Assembly (NCBI GenBank): GCA_000004695.1
Contig: CM000152.2
Span: 5,408,001-5,472,000 of the forward strand
Origin: Dictyostelium discoideum
Taxonomy: Eukaryota
Length of the DNA stretch: 64,000 nucleotides
Direction of reading: 5' to 3'
Shown here: positions 5,291 through 50,674 of the stretch, piece after piece
Layout of the letters: each line of letters begins with the position of its first letter
Numbering within the stretch: the stretch's first letter is position 1
Made by a program: the position numbers and the translations under genes
The notes under the pieces: model-generated
The model's database searches: none
What the model was told of the DNA's origin: nothing
What the model saw: only the letters and a program-made list of their open reading frames with translations

Positions 5291-8200
5291 TAATCCACCA
5301 TTTTTTTTTTTTTTTTTTTTTTTCACTTTTTTTTTTTTTTTTTTTAAAGAATTTACTTTTAGTTTAAATATTATCAGTTCATCAATTTCAAAAAAAGAAG
5401 TAAATTTATTTGGAAATCAATTAAATTATGCAGCAATTGAAATAGAATTTGATAGTGATATATTCAAGTATGACTCATTAGGATGTCCAAATTTTAATTG
5501 TACATCAGTAGTTGGCCAAGATGAAATTGATTGTACTTGTGATTATACAGATGTTAATGATTGTCCAAAACAAATTGATTCATCATGTCCACCATGTCCA
5601 TTATTTGATAAATTTGATAATGATATAGAATTATGTAAAAACAATATTGATCCAACAGTTATTTGGACTACAGTAGTGAAAGATAAAGAATATATCTTTA
5701 CATCAGATAAATCCATTCAGTTAAGATATAAAGCAGATTCAAAGATATGTGAGCAAATTATGATACAAAATCATCAAATTAAAGGATTTTATAAATTATC
5801 AATGGGTTATTCACCAACATATTTCTCACAAAGGGATATGATTCTTAGTAATCCTTTAGTTTATGGTGTAATGAATATGTGTCCATCTGATAATATCTCT
5901 TACTTACAGGGTAAAGATTTTAATCAAGGTTGGACACAAGATACATTCTATTTCACACTTCAACCATTTAAAATTGGTAAACCATTTTCAATGTCATTCA
6001 AATTAACCTCAAAACCAGTACCACCAATTTTAACGACAACAATGACAAAATGTGAAAATATTACTAATACTCATCAATGTTTAAATGATGGTGAAATGGT
6101 TGAAAGAGATGAAGAACAACCTCAAACATACCATTATTATACATTTAAAGCGTTGAAGAGTGCAATATACACAATTAGATGTCCAACATTATATGAAACA
6201 GTTGGTATTTTAGCTGATGATGTTAATTCATTCCCAGTTTATTCATCGATAATACCTGCGAAATGGGCAAGTGTTGATAGTTTTGAAAATAATATTGTGG
6301 TTTATTTAGAAAAGGATAGTGTGATCTATATTGGTGTATACATTTCTTGGCCATCATTTTATACATTATCAATTACATCTCAAGCTTATTATTCACCAGT
6401 TAATATTTCAAGTTTACCTCCAATGGCTGCAATTTTTGCTCAAACTAAATCAAGTAGAATAAAGAATTCAATAACTCAAATCGCTTGTGAATCATGGTCT
6501 CAATGCTTTTTATATACAATTGGTGCGCCATACCTAAATAATGATCCAATATCACCTTTACCACCACCTTATTTAACTTATTTTATTCAAGATTCATTAC
6601 CATCCTTCTTTGATTTAGATTATGATGATACCTTATTAAATCCAATGAAATCAAAAACTTTTCAAGCTGCTTTCTTATTATCTTATAAAATTGGTTCTGC
6701 AACAACTTCAACTTTAATTGATTTTAATTTAGCTTTAAATTCACAAATTGAATTTTTATCAACATTTTTTGATAAAAATGGAATTGTAAGTTTTTTTTTT
6801 TTTTTCCTCAAGATTTATACTAATTATTATTTTTTAAAAAAAGGCAATTTCAAATATTGTATCATATAAAGAAAAAGAATTAGAATGTAATTATAAAGAT
6901 TTTAATGAAATTTTAAATGAAATTAATAGAATTGAAAATTTATTATATAATGTTACAGATTTAATGGAAATGAATAATTTAAGATATCAATTGGATACAT
7001 TAACAATTAGAAATAGTTATGTTGGATGTTCACATCAAGCAATTAAATTTTTAGAAAAGAAAACAGTTTTAAAGAATGTAACAGGTACCTATTGTAATTA
7101 TCAAACAACTGATCCAGAATTTGAAACTGATCCATGTTGTAGTTTAGTAATGAGATATAAACAATGTTGTAATCCAATTACAATGCAAATTGAAACGGTT
7201 GAATATGTTGGTATTGAATCAACTGATGTAAAAGATCAATGTTCCAATCCATTATGTACAGAGAGTGTTATCGATCAATATTACAATACATTGGATTCAA
7301 CACAAAATGAATGTACAATTGAAAATCAAGCATTAGATAAAATTAAAATCAATATAATTTCAACACTTCGTCAATGTCAATCAGATTTAAATATTTTATC
7401 ATCATCGAATGTAGATTGTACATTAGATAAAGATTGTTTAGAATTTAGTGGTTCAAAAAGTACTTGTGATTTATATTCAAGAAAATGTATACCAGATATT
7501 GAATATTTAGATAACCTTTACTTAAATTGTATTTTTAGTCAATTAGATAAAGGTATAATTTTTAAACTTTTAAAGAAACCTTTTATATTGGATAATCAAG
7601 ATTCATTAATTCAAGAGATTTACAATCATTATCAAAAAGATGATTGTATAAATCAAGGTCCATTTCCAAACCAAGATAGACAAAGATTTAAATATTATTC
7701 AAATTCACAAGAAGATCGTTATTATGAATCACCACTTTGTTTAGATGATTCATGTCCATTGGTTCATGATTTAAATTATGATGATATTTATGGTGATTTT
7801 AAAAGATTTTACAATTTAAATCAAGATACTATTGGTTATTGTGATCTATTAGGTTTTTGTAATTCAGATTCATCATGTATAGGTATTAATGGTGATCCAA
7901 CTCTTTCAATTTGTATTGATGATTGTAATGTAGATTTTTGTGGATTTTGTTCAAACAGTACCAATTCACTTTGTTATAATTTCAATATAAATGATCAAAC
8001 AACATGTGAATCATTAGGTCATTGTATGTTACCAAATGGTGATTATCAACAAACCACTCTAGAGAGTGAATGTCAACAATTAGGAGTTTGTTCAGTTCCT
8101 TGTGGTTATAGTTGTCAAGGTTTTATTGGTTGTGCAATTACAAATGTTATTAATGAAACTCAATGTTTAACAATTAATTCAACCACTTGGGATAACACAT

Positions 8201-10634
8201 TCAATTTATGTTATGATAATACTGTTTTAACAGTTGCACAATGTATTGGTGACCAATCAACAAACAATAATAATTATCAATGGGTTAATTGTACATCAAA
8301 TTCAATCGATAAATGTATTGGACCAAATACACCATTATTGTATGGTATTTGTTATTTAACAACAATTGAATGTAAATCAAAACAAGAATGTGAACAAGCA
8401 GGACAATGTTCAGATATGTATTATTTTTCACCTGAAAATACTAAAGGTTATCCATTGGGTTTAGGTAAATGTGTAAGACCTCATAATTTATATAGAAGTA
8501 TGGTTTCATGTTTTTATTCAAATAATATATTTGAAACTGAACAAGACTCACCAATGGGATGTTTCAATTATTTACCAAATGTATTCACAAGAAATGATTG
8601 TGAAGCATTAGGTGATGGTTATCAATGGTGGTCAGCAGCTCAAAGTGAATCAGAATGTTTATCAACTTTTGGTTGTAGTGTAATTCCAAGTGATAATTCA
8701 AAAATGTTACCATATAATAGATTATTTAATGAAATGGATTATGAAACTTGTGTAGGTTGTTATGAATCAACTAATGAATGGACCAATAAGTTCACCTATA
8801 AACATGGTGAATGGAAGAGTGGAATTTTCACACCAAAAGGTGTATGGATGCAAAGTAAATGGATTTCAACAGCAACTAGAACCACGTCATTAGATTATGA
8901 AAGAATCTATAATGATCTAATGACTAGTGCAAATTCTCAAATGTCAGATTTATTACGTTCTGAATATTTTTGTAGAATGTTTCGTACTAAAAATAATTTA
9001 AATTCAATTTCATGTAGTTGTTCAGGTGATGGCGATAGTTCATGTTTTAAAGAAACTTCATTACTTTTAGGTGAAACACAACCATGTCATTCAAAATCAA
9101 CTTCTTTCCATTTTAGCTATGGTCAGGTTTTATTTTCAAATGATTCAGTCCCTCAAGGTTGTGGTAATTGTTTAGTATCACAATATTCAAGACAACTATT
9201 TACCTCAGTTGAAAAACAATTATTCCCTTCAAATTTCGTATCTTATCCAAAGCCTGAAGATTTTGGTATTATAAATTCAAAAGGTGCTATAATTGGTACG
9301 ATTCTAGGTGATGGTATAGTAATAGAATCACAAGGTGTTATTAAATATAATGTTTGTTTAGCATTCACTTTAAATAAAGATTCAGAAAAATATCCAGTTT
9401 TAGATTTTGCAAGTTTAGATGAACAAACTAAAAAATTGTATCCTAAAGGTTTAGATCAAGGTTATATTGTGAAATTGGAAGATGGTGAAGATGATTTATT
9501 ATGTTTTGAAATTTTAAGTGTAAAACAAAAAGAAACATTATTCCCAATTAATCATATCAATGGCAATTGGGCTGAGGAAAATAAATCTTACTTTGATAAA
9601 TCAACACAAGGTTTATTATACACACTTGCAGCACTCTTTTTATTGGTTTCAATTTATGGTTTTTATCAATTGGTTATCATTTCCATCATTAGATTCAAAG
9701 GAATTATCACAAGGTTTGAATTGGTACACCTTTTACTATTAATGATTTTTATTTTCGTATCTGTGAGAATGGTTTATTTCTTCCTTTTACCAAAAGGTTA
9801 TCTAGCAGATTCTTCAATTGCAGATTATATATTGGTGGTTTTACCAACTTTCTTTTTCTTTAGTTGCTTTACAATCATTATTGTACTTTGGTATGCAATT
9901 GTATTTTTAGTATTAAAAAATAATAGTAGGGCAAGTGATTTAACTAAAAGAGTTAATTATATATTAATAATGGTAAATATTATTATTTATCTTTTATTAA
10001 TTTCAATTGTAATTGTTTTTCAATATACAAAAGATAGATATAATAATAATTGTGGTAATAGAATTATAATTGTAAGTTTTTTATTTTTTAAAAAAAAGAT
10101 ATATATATAAAGGTATATTTATTAATTTTTTTATTTTTATTTTTTATTTTTTTTTATTTTTAGGATGTTAAAACTTCAACAAGTCAAAAAGCAGTTTCAA
10201 TTGTTTATGCAGTTGTTCAAGCTACAATTAGTCTTGTAATTGGATCAGCATTTATTTATTTAGGTAGTAGCTTATATAGTTCAATGAGTAAAGCCATTTC
10301 AAATAGTAACAATGCAAGAGCTGTCAAGAAAGCAAAGAAAATCTTTTTATTAACTACAATCTCTGGTACTGGTTTTATATTACATTGTATTTTTATTATT
10401 ATTTTAGTTTCTATAAAGAATCCAAGTGTTATTTTTAGTTTTATTGGTTTAATAATAACTGAAATCATACCATCTGTTACTATTTTATATTGTTATGACC
10501 AAAGAGTTGGCTTACACTTGGATAGATCTTTAAATACAAAAACATCATCAGCAACTTCATCCTCTTCTTCAAATAAATTAAGCAAATTAACTTCAACTGA
10601 GAAAACTTTTAGTGAAAATTTATCCTCAGAATAA
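5178..10634 (+). CDS. Secreted/membrane Cys-rich protein with a C-terminal 7-transmembrane module, ~1730 aa. Model join(5178..5232,5350..6785,6844..10071,10164..10634).
   Basis: Exon 1 encodes a signal peptide ('MTKRVTFILFLYLFFSFTS') and ends at a GTTAGT donor. The acceptor is at 5348-5349. The GTAAGT donors at 6786 and 10072 pair with acceptors at 6842-6843 and 10162-10163. All junctions keep the track ORFs 5676..6869, 6964..10110 and 10284..10634 in one frame with no stops. The ectodomain is very Cys-rich (dozens of C in CxxC/CxC spacing). The C-terminus has 7 hydrophobic helices ('LLYTLAALFLLVSIYGF', 'LVHLLLLMIFIFVSV', 'YILVVLPTFFFFSCFTIIIVLWYAIVFLVL', ...). Confidence 0.6.
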
Positions 10635-22863: not shown

Positions 22864-25164
<2,301 letters not shown>

Positions 25165-31945: not shown

Positions 31946-35028
<3,083 letters not shown>

Positions 35029-35127: not shown

Positions 35128-36214
35128 TTAATTTATTATCATATTATTATTATTATTGGTTATTGGGATATTATTTGTTATTGGAATATTATTTGAATTA
35201 TTTGGTTTTTTATCTCTAGATTTATTAATGTCATTATTTAATTTATCATACATTAATTCATCTTTTCTGGAAACGGAAGGTTTAATTTTAGAGAGAGCGA
35301 AAATGAAATCTTCCATTGTTACAGTATCTGGTTCAGTAGAGTTATTATCGAAACCACGACTAATAGCATGATTTGCTGCTTCTTTAACTAATAATGAAAG
35401 ATCAGCACCAGAGAATGAATGACAACGAAGATCGGTACCAACTTTAATTAGATCAACATCTTGGTGAATTGGAATCTTATGAGTGAGAGTTTTAAGGATT
35501 TCACATCTTTCCTCTGGTGATGGTAATGGAACATAAACCATTTTATCAAGACGACCTGGTCTACACATTGCAGCATCGATAATATCAGGTCTATTGGTTG
35601 CAGCAATTATGAATACTTCGGAACGTTTCTCTAAACCATCCATTTCTGTGAGTAATTGATTTACAACTCTTTCAGTAGCTTGGTTACCTCCACCATCACC
35701 ACCACCTCTTTTTGGGGCCAATGCGTCAAATTCATCGAAAAAGATAACACATGGTGATGATGCTGCTGCCCTTTGGAATACTTGACGTACGGCACGTTCA
35801 GATTCACCAACGTATTTATTCAAAAGTTCAGGTCCTTTAACTGATATGAAATTAGCTTGACATTCTGATGCGATTGCTTTAGCTAATAGGGTTTTACCAC
35901 AACCTGGTGGACCATACATTAAAACACCGGCAGGCGAATCAATACCCATATTTTTATATTTCTTTGGATATCTAATTGGTCTAAGAATTGAATTGGTTAA
36001 CTCCTCCCTTACACCACTTAATGCACCAACATCATCCCATGTAACATTTGGAATAGTTGCAAAACCTTCTCTTTTTGCTGCTGGTACAACTTTTTTCAAT
36101 GCTTTTTTAAAATCAATCATTTCAATATATAAACTATTCAATTTCTCTGGTTCTAATGGTTCTTTTGAAATTAATAATTCTGTTGATAAACCAATATTGT
36201 TTATATTAGTAGTA

Positions 36215-36245
<31 letters not shown>

Positions 36246-37264
36246 CACCATTTAAATTACTTGTAAATATTCTATTTACTGAATTGGTTGCTGCTTCTTT
36301 AACTAATAAATTAATATCTGCACCAACATAACCTGGTGTTAATGTTGCAATCTCTTCATAATCGAAATTATTCTCCAATCTCATCTTTGATGTAATAACC
36401 TTTAATATTTTACATCTTGCTGTTTGATCTGGTATACCTAAACAAATTTCCTTATCAAATCTACCACCAATTCTTAATGCTGTATCTAATGATTCTGGTC
36501 TATTTGTTGCACCAATTACAATTACATGTCCTTTTTTAAAATCATTTTTTTGTTGTTTATTATTATTATTTGATGCTGTAGTTGTTGTAGTTGCTTGTGA
36601 ATCAACTTCAATTATATCTTGTTGTTGTTGTTGTTGTTGCTCAGTTTGTTCATTTGGTTCATTTGTTGAATTGTTAGATGATAAATAATTTAAACTATCC
36701 ATACAAGTTAATAATTGTGATACAATTCTTCTTTCCATATCCTTTGAAGCAGATTCTCTTTTTGGAGCGATTGCATCAATTTCATCGATAAAAATGATAC
36801 ATGGTGCTTGTGCAATTGCATTGCTAAACAATGTTCTAACTCTAGCTTCAGATTCACCACTAACACCACTTGTAATTTCAGTTGCAGATATTGCAAACAA
36901 AGGTACTTTTAATTCACCTGCAATTGCTTTTGCTAATAAGGTTTTACCACATCCAGATGGACCATGTAATAAAATACCTCTTGGTGGTTCAACACCTAAA
37001 TGTGAGTAAATCTCTGGATGACAAATTGGATATTCAATATGTTCTCTAATATCTCTTAAACATGATTCAACACCACCAAGATTTGAAAAATTAATTGTTG
37101 GTATTAATCCATTACTTAAATTATTATCTTTATTATTACCATTATTATTATTATTATTTGAAAATTGGAATACATTATTACCATTTGAACTATTCTTTAA
37201 TTTCTTTTTTGGTTTTGAGTTTGGTGTATTTACATTATTTGTTGTGGTATTACTATTAATTGCA

Positions 37265-37295
<31 letters not shown>

Positions 37296-37837
37296 TTACA
37301 TTTGATGGTATATTTTCATCTCTATTTCTTTTTGCTGGTGTTGTAGTTGTTGTTGTTGGTGGTGTATTTTTAATATTTTGTTTGTATTGTGATGTTAATT
37401 GTTCATTTAAAATATTTGATGATGGTGGTGGTAGTGGTGGTGAAATTATCTCTACATCATCTCCATCTGATTCTTCCATTTTATTATCACCATCTTCGTT
37501 CTCTGATGATTCACAAGACGAAAGGTTTTTAATAATCTGGTTCATTGCTAAAAAAAAAATAAAAAAAAAACCAAAAAAAAAAAAAAATATTAATATTAAT
37601 AAACTATATAGTTTTAATAGTATATTTTGTTTTATTTTTTATTAATTATTTACCTTTTTCAACCAATTGTTTAAATCCTTTTAATGGTTTTCTGTTATAT
37701 TCCGGATAGACTTTTCTTAATTCATTTGTAATAAAATCATTGTTTAAAATATTTGACTCACTTAAATCTAATTTTTCAATTCTATCCATTAACTTTTCAT
37801 TTTCATTTTGACCAGAAGTATATTTTTTATTTACCAT
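35128..37837 (-). CDS. NVL/Rix7-type nuclear AAA-ATPase (two AAA domains), complement(join(35128..37547,37654..37837)), ~867 aa.
   Basis: Two Walker A motifs, 'GPSGCGKT' and 'GPPGCGKT', each with a Walker B 'DEID'/'DEFD' and a second-region-of-homology block. The 63-aa track ORF 37646..37837(-) ends at a GTAAAT donor (phase 1). The acceptor ttttAG lies 2 nt upstream of the NVL ATG. The join g+ca is in frame. The small exon encodes '...ITNELRKVYPEYNRKPLKGFKQLVEK', which resembles the human NVL2 N-terminal '...[28 protein letters not shown]' nucleolar-targeting domain. Confidence 0.8.
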
Positions 37838-38690: not shown

Positions 38691-40196
38691 ATGGATTGTG
38701 ATGAAATTAATTTTAAAAATGAAAATAAAAATTTAGAATTTTTATTAAATAAATATATAAATGAAATTTCAGAGCCAGCAAATTATCAACAAATTAAAAT
38801 GAGTATTTATAAATATTATGAACAAAATCATAAATCAAATTTAACTCATCAACAAAGTGAAGCGTTAAAACAAATAATCAGTGAAACTGGACCATCTGAA
38901 AGTATTTTATCAACATGTATGGATTTTAGAGTTAATTTCATAAATCAACCAAGTGAATCATGTGAAATATTTGATCCACTGAAAAAAAGAATTGCTAAAT
39001 TTCAACAATTAATAAAGGATAGCCTACAACAAACTCCAATCGAACCATTACTAAATGAATTAATTAATGGTTACAATTTATTCATTAGTCAATTGGTTGA
39101 AAGAGTAATTTATAAAGAAACTGATGGTAGTAGAAAATCATTAAGAATATTAGAATGTAATCCATTGATATTGGGTGAAGATTTAATTTATCGTGAAATT
39201 TCATTGGATAAAGCCTATGAAATTGCATCCTATAATCCAAAAGAGTATGAATATCAAAAAAAGAATGAAAATGGTACTAGTTGTGGAGGAGTTGTAAACT
39301 CTGTCTACTATAAAGTTGATAATGGTTCTCATTTACTTAGACCAGCAAAAGAGAATGCAGTTTTCCAATTTTATAAAACACTTTTCGAAACTGATAAATA
39401 TATTGTACCAACTCAACTATTGGTTATTAATCAGCTACCAATTCTTCCACCAGATATTAATGACTCTGAAGAAAGAAGAGAATTAATTAAATTAAAAGCA
39501 AGACACTGTTTAACGAATGCTCGTGATGTTTTTAATATTGATCCTCAATTAGAAAGAAGGATAGAAAATGCACTCCAACATCAAAGACCACTTTTCATTC
39601 AAGGTTCATTATTTATGGAGGGAAAAAGTTTATTTGATTTTCTATCAAATGGCTGTGGTGGTTGTAGTGGTTGTTGTGGTGATAGTGATAGTGGTAGTGG
39701 TAGTGGTTGTTGTGATAATAAAAAAAATTCAAGTCAAGTTGTAGTAGATGGTGCTTCCGATGATAGATTAGGTGGTTGTTCTAAAAAACCTATTGATTAT
39801 AGTGTTTTAGATAGAGAAAGTTTTAGTTCACACATTTTAGCAAGTTTATTATTAATGCCAACAGATTATAAAGCAGATAACTTAATTATTTCAAAGGATT
39901 CAAATATGATAGTTGGTATTGATAATGATGAATCGATGGAATGTGACGAAGTGAAAAAAGTTATCAGTAGTATTTCAAATCACGAAAGATATGATATCTG
40001 TTTAAAGAATATTTTATTTAGTTTACCATTAATGAATGAATATATTAATGAAAATATAATATCAAAATTTATGAAACATCATCCAAATATCTTTTTATTA
40101 GAATGGTTAATTAAACAATGTGAAAAAGAAATTATATATAATCAATTTATTAAAGCATCATTACCAATTAAAATTAATGATAACTCAACGACCACC

Positions 40197-40284
<88 letters not shown>

Positions 40285-43200
40285 TTTATAATGAAAAAAT
40301 AATATCAAATATAAATCAAGATTTGGGATTACCTTTTAAATTTTCACCAGGTTGGATAAAATTAATGCTTGGTAGATTTATAATGATTAAAAAAATATTA
40401 AAAGCTAGTGGTTGTAGAATGTCACATAAAGAATTATTAAAACAAATTTTACCTTTTACTGGGCATTATTATCAAGCATTGGAGAGATTAAATTCTGATC
40501 CACTTCAACAAATGGTTTCAATGTATGGTAGAGGGTTTGATTTTAAACAATTACTTTCAAATCATTTGGTTTCTGAAGATTTAGATAAAATATTTCAACA
40601 ATTGGAATCAAGAGAATTTAAAAAATGGTCACCACCAAATCAATCATTACAAGATACAATTAAAGAGTTAATACTTGAAACAAATTATGGTACTGATTCA
40701 TTCCCTTCAAATCAATATTTAATTAAATGGTTAGAGATTCTATTGATTAGGTTAAATTCTGGAATTGGATTTGGAACTAATGATAAGGAATTAAATTTTA
40801 AATATTTTGAATTACATGATTCATGGTATAAAAACAAGGAGAAAATATTTATTATCTTAATTAAAGAGGGTGCATCTGAAATTTTACTAAGAGATTTTGC
40901 AAAGATTGTTCATTTAACAATTGATGAAATTAATCAAATTAGAGATGAAGAGGTTGGTTCAATAGTTCATATTGCAATTCATTCAAATAATGCCAATATT
41001 TTATCACAATTAAAAGTTTTACAGTGTATGGGAGTTGATATCGAAGAATCTAATAGTAGTTGGTGTACACCATTAGGTTTAAGTGTACATAATAAAAATT
41101 TTGAATTATTTAAATTACTAATTGATATGGGTGCTGGTGCATTAACAAATCCTCAAAAAATCAATGACTATTATAAATCTTTATCATTGGAAAGTAGACA
41201 AGAGTTACGTCCATACCTTTCAAAGTTATCTTATGTAAATCCAAAAATAATTTGGAAGATTTCATTAGACCATATTTTCCCTTTAGTTAGTGGTTATTCA
41301 GGTCCAGCAACAGGTAATAAAGTTTTAAAAACTACATCAGAAGGTGAAAGAGTAATCTCAATTGAACATTGGCGTCAATTGTTCCATCATGATGGTTCGC
41401 CAATAAAATCAAATCCTCATGGAGCAAGATCTGTACCATTTGTAAAGAGTAAAGGATTTAGAATTTATTGTAAATTTGAACCACAATTTCCAGGTACAGA
41501 ATTAGCTGTTTCAAGATTATCAGAATTACTTTTTGGTTATTTATCACCATATAGTGAACTTGGATCAATAAATAATGTACCAGTTTTATTAACACAAGGG
41601 ATTGTTGGAGACCCATTGGTTGATATACTTTCAAAAAATTCAGAAATTTTAAATCATTTAGATCCATCAAATTTATCAAAAATTTTAGTATCTGCAATGT
41701 TATTTAATCCAGGTGATGGTAATTTAGGAAATTATATAGTTTCGCCATGTTTAAATGATACAATTGATTCTAATAATAATAATAACAATAATAATAGTGA
41801 AAATAATAATAATAATACCAAACAAATGTATAGATTAATTGCAATTGATCAAGATCAAAGTTTTATGCCATCATTTTCAAAGGATTTAGGATCAAATAAA
41901 TTATCATTACAGGTTGAAACCGTTTTGTTTCTTTTTAAACAAATGAATGATCCAGTTCACCAAGATGTAAAAGATTGTATACTTGAGAAAAATTTAGATT
42001 TAGTTTTAAATAATTGGTTAAATAATTTGAAATTTCATCATCAAGCATCAATTAATCATTTTAATAAAATTGGTGAAAGATTAAAGGATAAACAACAACA
42101 ACAAATGGAGAAAAAGACAATTATTGGTATATCATTTGCTCCTGGTATTATTCAACAACTATTTTCAAAGTTAACAAGATTACAAAATGAATTTAAAAAG
42201 AATAGAAAGAAACCAATAACTCATATTGAACTTTTAGAGATTTTGGAACCAATGATTGCAATTCGTTATAAACCATTTTTAAATGAATTCAATAATGGTC
42301 CAGAGTTTTTAATAGAAAAGTATAGAAAATTAAAAATTTCAAGTTCTCTTGAGACTTCTAATGGTGGTTATGGTAGTATTTCATCTTTGAGTAGTTCAAT
42401 CCATTCAAATTCATTCGTTTTAGAGTCTAGAGAAATTCCAAATATAAGTGAAATTCAATCATCTTTAAGATCTGGTAAATTTGGACCTGATAGAGCTATT
42501 GAAGAATTAGATATTATAAAGAAACAACAATCTACTATAAATCAAATTTTATCAGATTTGGGTCAATTAAATCATTTTATTGATGGTAGATCTTTATCTC
42601 AACCAAATTTAATCGAATCACTACAACAACCAAATTCATTAACAAATTCAGGTTCAAGAACAATAAATGCTCAAGGTATACATACAAATGGAAGTTTAGG
42701 TAGTAGTGTTGGTAATAAATTTAGTAAATTATTTGGTATGGGTAGTAAACAACCACCATCATATCAAATACCACAACCCACTACACCACCAATGGAAAAG
42801 AGAAAGGATAATTTAACCGATTGTTTATTAGAACAATTGTTAAAAGAAGTTAATTTCAAAAAATTAACACCACCTCAAGAAAAGTATTTATTGGATTTTT
42901 TGAAAACAAGTAAAGAACTTAGATTTGTATCATTAAAGGGTGCGTCAACAATAAAATATCAATTTTTTAAATCATTTATAATTAGAGCGATCGTTCGTAT
43001 GGATTTATCAGATAGTAGTATTGATTCAGTTTCACAAGTTGGTTTATTAGGAACTACTTCCTCACCTATAGTAATGCACTCATTAACTAGACTTCGTCTT
43101 GATAGATGTTCATGTTTATACATGATAAAACTAAATGCTGATGCATTAAAAGAATTAAGTTGTACTGATTGTCCAATGTTAAAAATCATTGAATTAAATA

Positions 43201-45488
43201 CACCAAATTTAGAGATTATAAATTTAGAAAATGGTTCAATCATTGATTCAAAATTTTGGGATAATCTAACTAAACAAACAAATCTTATAAAATTAAATAT
43301 ATCAAATTGTAAAACAGTTTCAAGAGAATTAACATTCACTTTTCCAAATCTATTAGAATTGATTGCAAATAAAATATCAACATTAGATAAAGTTATATTA
43401 CAATTACCAGTAGCATTATCAATTCATTTTGAAAGTTGTATAAATTTAACATCAATATCTGGTTTAACACCATCATTAAAATTATTAAATTTAAATCAAT
43501 CAATAAGTTTAATTTCAAATAATGAAAATAATAATGAAAATATTATTAATAATAGTAATAATAATAATAATAATAATAATAGTAATAATAATAGTAATAA
43601 CAATAGTATATCAACAACACCAATTAATGTTTCAAGTAATTCATTAATATCAAGTCAATCAAATTTAAATATTACATATTCATCAACATTTAAAGTAAAT
43701 GTATGTGGTGTTGATAAACATATTCAAAACTTTAGAAAAATTATAAATTCTTCTTCAAAAATTTCAACAAATTATAAAGTTGATAATATTAGAAATCAAG
43801 AATATGATTTTCAATTTTGGTATTTAGCTGAACAATGTGATAGTTCAACAACTCCACTATATCTTAAAAGCTCAAATATATTATTGTTATTATTTGATTT
43901 TTCATTAGATATTGATGGTAATGAATTTAATGAAACATTAATAATTTTCCAAAATTATATTGAAGCATGTAAATCAAATTCAATTAAACAAAGATTTATT
44001 TTATTTGGTTATGGTTATCCACCAGATTCTAAATCACTTGATTTGGTAAAACAATTTAAAGAATTAAATCAAATTGAAACCTTTGTCTATATAGCTCAAA
44101 TACTTGAAAAGCATCAACTAGAATATGTTAGAGATAGTTTATTCTCAAATTTAAGAAATGATCAATTAGAGATTTTAAAGGTTAATCATTTATATAATTT
44201 TAAAAAAAATATAGAAAAACAAGCTTTACAAGTTGTTGCAAAGAAAATACTTACCAAAGATGTATTGGTAATTGATTTATTGGATGAACTTGAAGGAATT
44301 GATTTCTCTGATATAGTATCGGATCATTTTCAAGATCATTTAGTATCAATTAATGAAATCTTTGATTTATTATACCAATTGAATAAATCATTAATTGAAA
44401 ATCATCAACAAAAAGAAGAATATGCAAAATCTATTAAAAAAGATTTCTTTAAAGTGAAAATCATTCAAAAACAACAAACTGATATGCTATCGAAATTAGA
44501 TCGTTACAAAGAAACCATTAATATTACAATGATTTTTAAAAATCTAAAAAGACTCTATTATATTGCATTAATTAAAAATATTGGTAAAGTGATTCAAACA
44601 CTTGCTCCAATTTTTTCAGATTATAAAATGGAAACTTATCAAAAGAAATACTTTGAAGATTATGAAGCTATAAACTTTTCATTCAAATCTGAATCATATC
44701 TATATAGTAGTTCCAATTCAATTAATATTACACTTTGTAGAGTTATTTGTTCAGGTTTTAATCATGCTTTTAGATGGTTTTTAGTGAAATATCCTCAACT
44801 ATTTGATGAGGCAACTTTAAATTCAAATAATTTAAACAATAGTAGTGTTTTAAGAACTTCTAGTAGTTTAGCTTTAAAAAATGAAGATAGTAGTAGTATA
44901 GAATTTCCTTATGAAAAAACACCTCTATCATTTGCTATTGATTATAAATGTTTAGAAATAATTCAATGGTTAGTTAATAATGTTATTTTATCATCAAAAT
45001 TATTAAATATTGCATTGATAAGATCAATTATGGTTGGTAATTTAGAATTGGTTACATTTTTCATTGAAAATGGTTCAGATGTTAATTGTAGTATTTCAAG
45101 TTTAGAAATGTCACCTATTCAATATGCTGCAAAGTTTAATCAAATTGAAATTGTTAAATATTTATTAACATTGGAGGGAAATAAAAAAGTAAACATTGAA
45201 AAAAAGAATAGACTAGGTTGGTCAGCAATTCATTTCGCTTCAAGAAATCAAAATCAACAAATTGTAGATTCATTATTATCAACTTCAAATGATAAATCTT
45301 TAATTAATACTCCAACAAATATAGGTGAAACTCCACTTTATTTAGCAGTAACAAAATCAATATCAATCAACCATGACTTTTGTAATTATTTAATTAATAA
45401 TTATAAACCAATTACAAAATGTCATATTGATGGTATTGTTGAAGAAATCGATATAGTTTCAAATTATTTAAATAAAATTAATACTTAA
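38691..45488 (+). CDS. Giant (2265 aa) intronless multidomain signalling protein. It has an N-terminal Cys-cluster region, ankyrin repeats, a type-II-PI4K-like atypical kinase domain, a coiled/linker region, leucine-rich repeats, a degenerate Roc-like GTPase plus COR-like region, and C-terminal ankyrin repeats.
   Basis: The PI3/PI4-kinase-like catalytic signatures are 'FRIYCKFEPQFPG', 'LFNPGDGNLGNYIV' (catalytic loop; compare PI4K2 'RNTDRGNDNWLI') and 'RLIAIDQDQSF' (compare 'AAIDNGLAF'). LRRs run about 43080-43520 ('LTRLRLDRCSCLYMIKLNADALKELSCTDCPMLKIIELNTPNLEIINLENGS...'). The Roc-like block is 'KVNVCGVDKHIQNF...QFWYLAEQ...LLLLFDFS'. It lacks the P-loop GxxxxGK[ST] and the DxxG motif. Ankyrin repeats: '...WSAIHFASRNQNQQIVDSLL...GETPLYLAV'. 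Confidence 0.75.
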
Positions 45489-45619: not shown

Positions 45620-47251
45620 TTAAAATCTTTTTTTAATTATTATTTTATTTTCTGGACAAGAATATGTAATACCAAATTTACCAATTTCATTTAATGGTGT
45701 TGATGGATTTGGATTAGTAAATTCATATCTATTAATTAAACTTGCTAACATTGTAAAGATTTCTGAATCAGCTAGTGATTTTCCAATACAATCTCTAACA
45801 CCACATCCAAAGTGAATTAAATTTGAGTTTGCAGATTGTTGTTGAGAAATAAATCTTTCAGGAATGAATGAATCTGGTTCAGAGAATTGTTTTTCATTTC
45901 TATGAGTTGCCCAAATGTTTTGAATGATTTGTGTACCAGCACAGATTTTATAACCATTTAATTCAACATCTTCTGAAGTAACATGAGGTAAACCAATTGT
46001 ACCAGATGGATATTTTCTAAATGTTTCCTTAACTACCATTGATAAATATGGTGCTAATGTACGATATTTATTAAATGATAATGTTATAATTTCTTCAGTT
46101 TGTTCTTGATTCTCATTATCATTCTGATTTTCATTTTCTTTACTTTGAATTATTGCTTGTTTAATATCGTCATATACTTTTGATTGAATATTTGGATTAT
46201 TAATTAATTCAAGTAAACAATATAAAATTGTATTTGCAGAAGTATCAGCACCAGCAGTTTGAAGATCAATACAAGTACTAACAACAGAATCCCATGAAAT
46301 TTCACCATTTTCAAATGATTGTAATAATTTTGAAAGAATTGGTTTATCAGCTAAACTTTTATTGTTGTCGTTGATGTTGTTATGAATTTCATTTTCATTT
46401 TTAAATTTTGTAATTAAATCACTTGTATAATTAAAAATTCTTTTATATGTATTCAAATAGTTTGAGGTATCAATGAATGGTTCTAATGATGGTATGAAAT
46501 CTGAAATGATAGGTTGACCTGCAATATTGAAAAATTCAACCATTAATTTTATAAATTCAGATGCTTTTTCAAATTCATCATATGGATAAGAATAATTTAA
46601 ACCAAATGTAAAACAAAGTACAATATTCATTGAAAACATTTTAATGTGGTTATTTAATATTATTGGTTTACCAGTATCTGCATGTTCATCTAAAACTTTA
46701 AATAATTTCTTGATTTCATTATCTATGAAACTAGTCTCATACTTTTTAATTCTTTGATTTGTCATTTCCGATAATACCAATGTCTTTAGTTTATTATGAA
46801 TATCACCATTAACAATCACTAAATTCTCACCATTGTTAAGCTTTAGTCTACTCTTTCTTTGAAATCTATTAACAAATGAATTTGAATTACCAATGAATGC
46901 TTCTCTAATTATTGGGTATTCTGTCAATACAACAGTCTCTACGTTACCCATTTTAATTCTGTAAATCACTCCATATTGTTTATACCATTCTTGTAATTTT
47001 AAATGAAGATCACCTTTCATTGATAGTAAATTACCAAGAATTGGTATTCCTTTTGGTCCTGGGATTTTTGAATTCATATTTTTATCATTTTTCTATTATT
47101 AAAAAAAAATAAAAAAATAATTAAAAATAAAATAAAAAAGATTAGTTACTTTATACTTATTTTTATTTATTTTTATTTATTTTTAAAAACCTACCTGGAG
47201 GAAAAAATAAAAAATTGTAAAAATTAAGACTAAACCAACTAAATAATTCAT
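45620..47251 (-). CDS. Cytochrome P450 monooxygenase, complement(join(45620..47092,47195..47251)). The N-terminal membrane anchor is on a separate exon.
   Basis: Heme-binding 'FGCGVRDCIGKSLA' (FxxGxRxCxG). 'PGPKGIPILGN' proline hinge. K-helix ExxR is present. Upstream exon 'MNYLVGLVLIFTIFYFFLQ' ends at a GTAGGT donor. The acceptor aatAG directly precedes 'KNDKNMNSKIPGP...', phase 0. Confidence 0.8.
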
Positions 47252-48835: not shown

Positions 48836-49934
48836 GCAATCTATAGGGATAATATCTAGAAAATTTCCTGGACCAGCAGGTATATTACCACCACTTTTAC
48901 CAGGACAAATTATAAATAATAGGAAATCCATAAGTTTAGATCAATCGAATAAATCAATGAATCAATCTACACTCTTTTTAAATAGTTCAAATGGAAATAA
49001 TAAAACTCATCTTTATGATTCCTCAAATCAAGATTTCACTAGAGGTTCTTGGATATTAATGTTAAAAGAAAGAAAACTTCCACCATTTAGTATGTATATC
49101 TTTTTATTTATATTTATATATACATATATATTATAGTCATGATATATATAATTATTATTATTATTACTAATACACAATCACACACGAAAAAAAAAATATT
49201 TTAAATAGATGATGAAAATAGTACACTATTAAAAAATAATATAGATTATGTTTTAAATGAAGGATTTTTAAAAAAAGTACCACAATTAGTTGTATTAATA
49301 AAAAGTTTAGTTGGTACTGATAGTGATTATCAAATTATAGTTTCAGATCCATCTGGTGAAATGAAAGGTACAATTCAAAAAAAGATTATTCAAGATTCTT
49401 TTCCAGAGATGACACATGGTTGGGTTTTAGTTTTAAAAAAGATTTCAATTTTTAGTCCAACTCCAACTTCACATTATATAAATATAGTTTTATCAAATAT
49501 TGATTTCGTTTATCAACCAAATTTCAATCCTTCTTCTTCTTCTTCTTCCACCACTACCACTAATACAACTTCTACTACAATCAATAATAATAATAATAAT
49601 AATTTTGATTATTTAAATAAAACTACAAAAGAATTTGATCAATTAATAGTAAAGAATTATAAATCAATTGAAAATTATAATCCAATGTCAATATATCAAG
49701 ATATACCACTTAGAAGTGAAGAAGAGATTCAAAATGAATTATATGAGAAAAGATTATTAAAAGCTCAAAAATTACAACAAGCTCAATTACAACAACAAAT
49801 ACAACAACAACAACAATCATTAAGCAAAAAACAACCACCACAAAAACCAAATGAAAGAATTTTAAAGAAAAGAAAAATTCCTGCAAAACCAATTCCAAAA
49901 CAACCTCCTCAACAACAACAACAACAGCAACAGC

Positions 49935-50010
<76 letters not shown>

Positions 50011-50674
50011 ACAACAGCAACCACAACAGCAAATATCATCTCCAACTAAATCTGCCAACTCCAATACAATGGCATTAACTACCTCTTCACCAACGAAATT
50101 AGCTCAAACAACTTTAATACCACCTGTAAATAAACCTTCACCGTCAATCACAATTTTAAAACCTCCACCAAGACCATCACAATCACAATCACAATCACAA
50201 TCGCAACCATCATCTTCTCAGCAATCATCTTCACAAATTAAACCATCACTCCCCATAAAATACCTTCCAAATAGCAACGCTAATAATAATAATAATAAAC
50301 AAATTCAAGTTTTTGAAGAATTGGATGATAATTTTGAAGTCGATTTATTTGATGATGATGAATTTTCAAAACCACCAAGGGACATAGATTCACAATCCCA
50401 ACAGGAACAGCAACAACAACAACAACAAAATGGTAATACTGGTATGACACAAGATTTTGAAAGTTTGGATGATTTAGATTTTGAACTTAAAGATGAAGAT
50501 ATAGTGGAGTTTGAATCCTCCACTCAACAAATTATAAAACAACAAGAGTTACAACAACAACAAAATCAAAATCAAGTTAAAACTGTAATTAAAAATGTTA
50601 AAACTTATACACCCCCAAAATTCACTTCTTATAAAACTACTACTCCAAATAAACCAAGTATTATAAAAAAATAA
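48198..50674 (+). CDS. Gln-rich hypothetical protein, ~786 aa, join(48198..49089,49209..50674), with a non-repetitive central block flanked by (CAA/CAG)n poly-Q.
   Basis: GTATGT donor at 49090 (phase 1) and acceptor AG at 49207-49208. The junction a+at is in frame with track ORF 49361..50674 and there are no stops across 49211-49361. The central block is 'DENSTLLKNNIDYVLNEGFLKKVPQLVVLIKSLVGTDSDYQIIVSDPSGEMKGTIQKKIIQDSFPEMTHGWVLVLKK'. Confidence 0.5.

Follow-up and report, generated by a model that had tools for sequence, protein, structure and literature searches.

A giant Dictyostelium discoideum protein as a probable member of an uncharacterised, widespread family of tandem PI 4-kinase-like proteins

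We analysed a window of 64,000 nucleotides from Dictyostelium discoideum (NCBI GenBank assembly GCA_000004695.1, contig CM000152.2, positions 5,408,001 to 5,472,000 of the forward strand) and focused on a giant gene within it, whose 2265-residue product had been described in a first-pass annotation as an atypical ROCO/LRRK-type protein. We consider it likely that the product is not a ROCO protein and belongs instead to an uncharacterised family of giant proteins, whose core consists of a pair of homologous atypical kinase domains (K1 and K2) with ankyrin repeats between them and a leucine-rich repeat (LRR) domain after them. The novelty lies in a widespread family of tandem domains with the PI3/PI4-kinase-like fold and a new architecture, and not in a new ROCO class. 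The features of the gene, in window coordinates and residues (aa) of the translation, are as follows.

38691..45488, plus strand: complete single-exon gene, 2265 aa, an ATG-to-stop open reading frame (ORF)
38691..39137, plus strand: N-terminal helical region, aa 1-149, found directly upstream of K1 in 28 of 154 family members (local jackhmmer)
39138..40190, plus strand: K1, the first domain resembling type II PI 4-kinases (PI4KII), aa 150-500, with K208, E221, D392-Y-K394-A-D396-N397 and I-D411-N-D
39651..39716, plus strand: Cys/Gly/Ser-rich insert, aa 321-342, in a variable loop of K1
40191..40283, plus strand: poly-Asn tract, aa 501-531, missing in orthologs, low-complexity sequence typical of Dictyostelium
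40290..40850, plus strand: K1 helical extension, aa 534-720, sharing homology with the helices at the C-terminal end of K2 (jackhmmer)
40905..41210, plus strand: middle ankyrin repeats, approximately aa 739-840, between K1 and K2
41304..42335, plus strand: K2, the second PI4KII-like kinase domain, aa 872-1215, with K928, E937, D1009-G-N-L-G-N1014 and I-D1053-Q-D
42336..42590, plus strand: conserved tail after K2, aa 1216-1300, present in 90 of 154 members
42801..43520, plus strand: LRR domain of the F-box/RNI-like class, aa 1371-1610 (Pfam PF23622)
43683..44180, plus strand: putative Rab-derived pseudo-GTPase, aa 1665-1830
44181..44720, plus strand: all-helical region, aa 1831-2010, where a COR domain had been placed
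44721..45440, plus strand: C-terminal ankyrin repeats, Pfam-supported at aa 2062-2238; further repeats may begin near aa 2011

Known domain families account for only part of this layout. A Pfam scan of the whole protein and of six segments, with matches accepted up to E = 10, returned ankyrin and LRR families alone, with no match to Pkinase, PI3_PI4_kinase, Roc or COR, and NCBIfam gave no match for the kinase-like regions. The LRR assignment made at first pass was borne out by PF23622 at aa ~1464-1558 (29.5 bits against a cut-off of 26.9; E = 6.7e-7), as was the lack of a canonical protein kinase. The flanking ankyrin repeats were also recovered, strongly at the C-terminus (Ank_2, E = 3.8e-24; Ank_4, E = 6.4e-20; ankyrin and DARPin matches in the PDB down to E = 2.8e-19) and below Pfam cut-offs in the middle of the protein (Ank_4, E = 2e-4; Ank_2, E = 4e-4), where family members have clear repeats at the equivalent position (Ank_2, about E = 1e-9). 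The sequence strings on which the earlier proposal was built (NPGDGNLGNYIV, IAIDQDQSF, QFWYLAEQ from aa 1708, LLLLFDFS and a Cys cluster) are all present in the translation.

A single kinase-like region had been reported, corresponding to K2. We find a second, homologous domain at aa 150-500: profiles of K1 and K2 align over 197 columns with an hhalign probability of 97.7% (E = 1.5e-12). A jackhmmer search with the helical extension places it twice per protein, after K1 and after K2 (for example at 454-639 and 1045-1184 in P0001). Because the helical stretches after K1 and in K2 are also homologous, the duplicated unit comprises the kinase core together with its helical extension. The residues required for phosphotransfer are intact in both copies: a Lys in beta3, a Glu in alphaC, Asp and Asn in the catalytic loop, and the Asp of the IDxD motif that binds Mg. 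In K2 the string NPGDGNLGNYIV holds D1009 and N1014 while IAIDQDQSF holds D1053. The catalytic set of K1 (D-x-K-x-D-N and IDND) is more canonical than that of K2. Across the family the consensus reads YFKxxPELPGxExAV ... NPEDGKPDNY ... IDNDHAFVP; the set of catalytic residues (Lys, Glu, Asp, Asn, Asp) shows over 90% retention in 155 K2 domains, as do the catalytic-loop and IDxD residues in those K1 domains that can be aligned at these positions.

At the level of fold, the predicted structure most resembles type II PI 4-kinase, as the following comparison scores show.

PI4K type II-alpha (4pla_A, 4hnd_A), over ~230 residues at 14% identity: 16.5, 16.2
Actin-fragmin kinase: 12.5
CotH: 12.4
PIKK, PI3K and PI4KIII: 11-12
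Fam20 and HipA: ~10
MavQ: 9.7
Eukaryotic protein kinases: 8 or less

The catalytic residues (K208, D392, N397 and D411 in K1; K928, D1009, N1014 and D1053 in K2) are in register with PI4K2A, and a local hhalign alignment sets the two K2 motifs singled out at first pass against NTDRGNDNWLI and AAIDNGLAFP of PI4K2A and continues through the next helix. After PI4K2A and PI4K2B (4PLA, 4HND), the next-closest known systems are the actin-fragmin kinase of Physarum (PDB 1CJA) and the CotH-type atypical protein kinases. In the BFVD viral library we found generic kinase matches only (TM-score no higher than 0.43) and no giant-virus homolog. The earlier assignment of a PI4K-type-II-like kinase therefore stands as a statement about fold; as a statement about sequence it does not, as no PF00454 match and no significant PI4K2 profile match was obtained.

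Several observations weigh against reading K1 and K2 as active relatives of the type II PI 4-kinases. The hhalign comparison with a PI4K2 alignment was not significant (probability below 3%, E = 0.016-0.09), in a test whose PI4K2A query is 100% identical to its database entry and whose comparison profile holds near-identical vertebrate sequences only. An hmmsearch of the K1 and K2 profiles against PDB sequences gave no kinase match and no PI4K. The link to PI4KII depends on one predicted structure and on short motifs. Finally, the K2 loop D-G-N-L-G-N has Asn and Gly at positions where most members have Lys and Asp, and catalysis by K2 may be impaired in this protein.

The last of these points would fit a protein in which both kinase-like domains are dead and which serves as a scaffold of repeats, two pseudokinases and a pseudo-GTPase. 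Its G domain is clearly dead (see below), and K2 of a D. purpureum paralog, P0022, lacks the IDxD Asp. However, neither K1 nor K2 of this protein lacks any of the catalytic Lys, Glu, Asp, Asn and Asp, and the retention of these residues above 90% across eukaryotes and bacteria is the pattern expected from purifying selection on catalysis; we regard the all-dead scaffold as improbable. Given the >90% retention among aligned family domains, we take both domains to be active enzymes in general, and, on the residues present, K1 and K2 of the D. discoideum protein are probably both active ATP-dependent kinases. The paralog P0022 (DICPUDRAFT_96302) itself shares the pseudo-Rab tail described below and probably lies on the same 226,909-bp contig as the D. 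purpureum ortholog, P0002. In its K2, INNES replaces IDxD, with loss of the Mg-binding Asp, and the catalytic loop is degenerate (NDVSLNN), so that it is likely, to judge from these motifs, to be a kinase-pseudokinase pair.

The tandem arrangement recurs widely. An initial word-indexed homolog search returned 6 proteins, from Dictyostelium alone. An exhaustive hidden Markov model search with the K2 profile gave 1017 cluster representatives (clusters at 50% identity) at E up to 1e-3, 200 of them at E up to 1e-30. We counted architectures in the best 154 family members, or 155 sequences once the window protein was added. At least two kinase-domain matches occur in 125 of the 155; an LRR follows K2 in 132 of the 154 members, and the short tail after K2 is found in 90. 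Ankyrin repeats lie between K1 and K2 in the family, the K1-K2-LRR order is recurrent, and the window protein shows the complete K1-Ank-K2-tail-LRR order. Dictyostelium has several paralogs, among them DDB_G0272122 and seven DICPUDRAFT genes, some with FNIP repeats; all are annotated as hypothetical.

Literature searches on the family, on DDB_G0272122, on PI4KII-like effectors and on Tox-ODYAM1 yielded no description of the kinase module. In the Dictyostelium kinome paper, the atypical class nearest to it comprises only four weak homologs of actin-fragmin kinase. As far as could be told, the family is covered neither by Pfam or NCBIfam nor by the published Dictyostelium kinome, although it may overlap the four actin-fragmin kinase homologs of the latter. 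If its domains are active, this would be a large kinase family, with roughly 1000 representatives, close to the type II PI 4-kinases in fold space and carrying a catalytic loop typical of Ser/Thr kinases on a PI4KII-adjacent fold. Dictyostelium is genetically tractable, so the function is directly testable.

The first-pass annotation had instead placed the protein in the ROCO/LRRK frame (LRR-Roc-COR), with a lipid-kinase-like domain in place of the protein kinase and a Roc domain that has become a pseudo-GTPase. There is a real likeness to ROCO proteins (LRRK2, Dictyostelium Roco1-11 and bacterial Roco): the protein is large and multidomain, has ankyrin repeats elsewhere, a G-type domain of the Ras superfamily directly preceded by an LRR (an order that is common in ROCO proteins and not defining), and a kinase in another part of the chain. 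The G-like block, however, is closer to Rab. Homologs of aa 1651-2060 occur in only 4 of the 154 members, and a profile of these with the window protein (five sequences) matched Rab30 in the PDB at E = 1.5e-5 and Rab2B and Rab3 at about 5e-4 to 8e-4; among the 60 PDB matches listed, nearly all are Rab, Ypt or Sec4 GTPases. The aligned region takes in beta2/3, switch II, beta4, alpha3 and beta5. In a direct hhalign comparison with provisional Rab1A and LRRK2 sequences, the block reached 47% with Rab1A (E = 2e-4) against 1.4% with LRRK2 Roc-COR (E = 0.036). The weak LRRK2 alignment, which speaks for a Roc origin as far as it goes, covers the Roc core (beta3-beta5) alone and none of COR. Thus the claim that the block derives from a small GTPase was sound, and its attribution to Roc was not.

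The proposal that this domain is a pseudo-GTPase also held. An alignment of the five sequences, in which intact G1-G5 motifs would have spoken for a working Roc domain, shows all of G1 to G5 lost: GxxxxGK[ST] (G1), DxxG, NKxD and SAK are missing throughout. What remains is a P-loop shortened to G-V-D-K-H after beta1, YLAEQC in place of DTAGQE and GYGY in place of NKxD. Similarity extends over the Rab core, including the switch II/RabF region, but unlike Rab GTPases and known pseudo-GTPases the domain lies inside a giant protein and has neither motifs for GTP binding and hydrolysis nor a C-terminal prenylation signal. On this alignment evidence we classify the block as a Rab-derived pseudo-GTPase and not a Roc domain. 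Outside the dictyostelids, P0140 is the only protein among the 154 members with an equivalent pseudo-Rab and ankyrin tail, and it retains a Rab-like SYYRGA motif within FQFWELPEHESFRSIARSYYRGA. P0140 fills almost end to end a transcript-like Logan contig (L042, from SRR15674825; 6000 bp, 38% GC).

The COR-like domain was not recovered. Pfam finds no COR after the G-like block, and an AlphaFold2 model of moderate quality (pLDDT 64.4) shows an alpha/beta core followed by helices alone for ~165 residues; there is no COR-A plus COR-B directly C-terminal to the G domain. Both defining features of a ROCO protein are therefore lacking, since the G-like domain is Rab-derived and COR is absent. Nor does a kinase replace the protein kinase within a ROCO frame: the LRR, which is of another class (F-box/RNI), is part of the K1-Ank-K2-LRR core conserved in hundreds of proteins, to which the G-like tail is only rarely added, and the kinase has another fold, is duplicated and stands N-terminal to the LRR instead of following COR. 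We therefore judge a ROCO/LRRK-type protein to be very unlikely here. The embedded dead Rab is one more case of a pseudo-GTPase serving as a structural element.

What the domains phosphorylate is a separate question. We lean slightly, and tentatively, towards protein, that is Ser/Thr phosphorylation. The family loop D-G-K-P-D-N (D-Y-K-A-D-N in K1) fits the D-x-K-P-[DE]-N pattern of Ser/Thr kinases, with a Lys at D+2 where PI4K2A has D-R-G-N-D-N; neither the palmitoylated CCPCC loop of PI4K2A nor its aromatic-rich activation loop (the membrane insertion cluster) has a conserved counterpart in the alignments; the accompanying domains are protein-binding or ubiquitin-protease modules; and the next-best fold neighbours (actin-fragmin kinase, CotH and PIKK) are protein kinases. 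These features argue for a protein substrate. Counting against it is the fact that the closest solved structure is a lipid kinase. The present domains differ from PI4K2A and PI4K2B in being set in tandem within a 2265-aa repeat-rich protein.

That nearest structure speaks for K1 and K2 being true phosphoinositide kinases that make PI4P or a related lipid at a membrane, in which case the pseudo-Rab, LRR and ankyrin repeats would target the protein to a compartment and the bacterial homologs described below would remodel the lipids of the symbiont vacuole. We hold this to be a serious possibility, if not the one we would choose. The missing PF00454 match and palmitoylation motif and the catalytic-loop Lys speak against it, as does an activation-loop region that is hydrophilic, neither aromatic nor basic; the sampled accessory modules include no lipid-binding or lipid-phosphatase domain. 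Moreover, the substrate of a PI4KII-like fold need not be a lipid, since homologs of type II PI4K in plants are reported to act as protein kinases. The remainder, after the protein, lipid and inactive-scaffold readings, goes to other substrates.

The family is not confined to eukaryotes. A scan of GTDB species genomes gave 40 loci in metagenome-assembled genomes (MAGs) of Chlamydiae, Dependentiae, Paracaedibacteraceae/Holosporales, other Alphaproteobacteria and Gammaproteobacteria. For the most part, bacteria of these lineages are known from inside protist cells. No introns interrupt the bacterial ORFs, which span 2400-2550 aa and carry add-on modules such as WD40 with Sel1, or LRR_6 with Sel1 and Tox-ODYAM1 (LRR_6 at E = 7e-52 in one member); further modules are Ulp1/RickCE-type proteases, OTU proteases, HEAT-like repeats and a trypsin-like protease. 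In one Gammaproteobacteria MAG chromosome (OZ220716.1, 2.45 Mb) there are at least six copies (L018-L021, L027 and L034). Four copies on that chromosome lie within ~120 kb (1.25-1.37 Mb), and a DDE transposase fragment adjoins the L018 copy. In a Chlamydiae MAG, the member at L005 3829-11109 has Tox-ODYAM1 at its end (E = 3.7e-10).

In the available passages of Zhang et al. 2012 (PMC3482391), modules of this kind are described in giant effectors and polymorphic-toxin-like proteins of amoeba endosymbionts, Tox-ODYAM1 is reported solely from Odyssella and Amoebophilus, which are endosymbionts of amoebae, and no PI4K-like kinase module is mentioned. As far as those passages go, the bacterial members share with these effectors Sel1, LRR, OTU, Ulp1/RickCE and Tox-ODYAM1 modules and an origin in obligate intracellular bacteria; the window protein differs in being an endogenous eukaryotic gene without toxin or protease modules. 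By their module make-up, and by analogy, the bacterial members look like secreted host-targeting effectors. Most of them come from MAGs, so that both their taxonomy and their effector status are inferred, which tempers this interpretation.

Five metagenomic proteins (P0009, P0011, P0013, P0015 and P0026) are the closest non-dictyostelid matches (E = 1e-81 to 1e-122), and their K2 motifs, NPGDGNLGNY and IDN(D/E)QAF, are of the Dictyostelium type. From their Sel1 repeats, Ulp1/RickCE protease and Ala-rich composition they look bacterial. The DGNLGN loop that they share with Dictyostelium therefore points to gene transfer between amoeba and symbiont, in either direction, and makes these proteins candidates for tracing it. 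We propose that the family has probably spread by gene transfer between amoebae and their intracellular bacteria. Its distribution, the often many copies per genome and the fusions to OTU, Ulp1-like and toxin domains mark the module as a candidate for host manipulation and as a probable case of amoeba-symbiont transfer.

Based on these data, a mechanism can be outlined. The protein would act as a tandem kinase in which K1 and K2, each a PI4KII-like fold with its own helical extension, are both active, and the ankyrin repeats, the LRR and the variable tail would recruit or position substrates. In the subfamily of the window protein this tail would consist of a Rab-derived G domain without nucleotide-binding motifs, followed by a helical region and then ankyrin repeats; the pseudo-Rab, which could not switch, would most plausibly provide a fixed docking surface. 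A bolder version joins these elements into one claim, namely that the module, derived from type II PI 4-kinases, represents active tandem kinases of a class not recognised before and has been exchanged between social amoebae and at least four obligate intracellular bacterial lineages; that the bacteria secrete it fused to deubiquitinase or toxin modules, rewriting host phosphorylation or vacuolar phosphoinositides; that the Dictyostelium copies serve in membrane traffic or the handling of bacteria; and that the window copy is anchored by a dead Rab mimicking a permanently "on" or "off" Rab surface. Taken jointly, we think this rather unlikely to be right in every part.

Given relatives in bacteria, we considered whether the ORF itself could be an artefact of bacterial contamination, mis-assembly or pseudogene formation. 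The close relatives of its kinase core in bacterial MAGs are what such an origin would predict. Its poly-Asn tracts and base composition are, however, typical of Dictyostelium (the window has ~23% GC, with long homopolymer and trinucleotide tracts), and a stop-free run of 2265 codons at this GC content is far beyond chance. An identical 2265-aa product is annotated on a 6.43-Mb chromosome in NCBI assembly GCA_054883475.1, among ordinary eukaryotic neighbours (a CDC48-like AAA ATPase, an intron-split protein-tyrosine phosphatase and a P450), and full-length orthologs in two further species, D. firmibasis (81% identity) and D. purpureum (49%), align with the ORF at its start as well as at its end. 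On account of the identical product, the eukaryotic neighbours and the orthologs that align end to end, we conclude that this is a real, complete, single-exon gene. An artefact is exceedingly improbable, and the genomic surroundings in particular led us to reject bacterial contamination.

The Cys/Gly/Ser cluster at aa 321-342, correctly noted at first pass, had been suggested as a lipidation or metal site. It lies inside the variable K1 insert and is missing in all other homologs, including the 81% ortholog, and we rejected such a site as a conserved feature. A parallel with the palmitoylated CCPCC of PI4K2A likewise finds no support from conservation or position. From its distribution the cluster is best read as a non-conserved low-complexity insertion.

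The gene is adjoined by a CDC48/VCP-like double-AAA ATPase at 35128-37545 on the minus strand and by a cytochrome P450 at 45620-47077, also on the minus strand. The plus-strand ORFs at 31955-33568 and 33796-35028 encode the N- and C-terminal halves of one protein-tyrosine-phosphatase domain, covering positions 1-64 and 114-233 of the Y_phosphatase profile, respectively, and the pair looks like one gene interrupted by an intron of ~230 bp. Upstream of it, the segment 29800-31700 is intergenic, with ~11% GC, and is composed nearly throughout of runs of T or A and of AT-rich tandem repeats. A 766-aa ORF without a Pfam match at 22864-25164 (plus strand) encodes a poly-Gln/Asn-rich protein; its perfect (CAA)n, (TCAAAC)n, (AAT)n and (ATA)n arrays, especially at 23161-23260, 23983-24072, 24178-24321 and 24917-25101, account for a GC skew of -0.59 at 22-24 kb. 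Elsewhere in the window, the plus strand encodes a 1048-aa protein with a C-terminal THH1/TOM1/TOM3 domain (6964-10110) and a protein with the HROB homologous-recombination OB fold (49361-50674).

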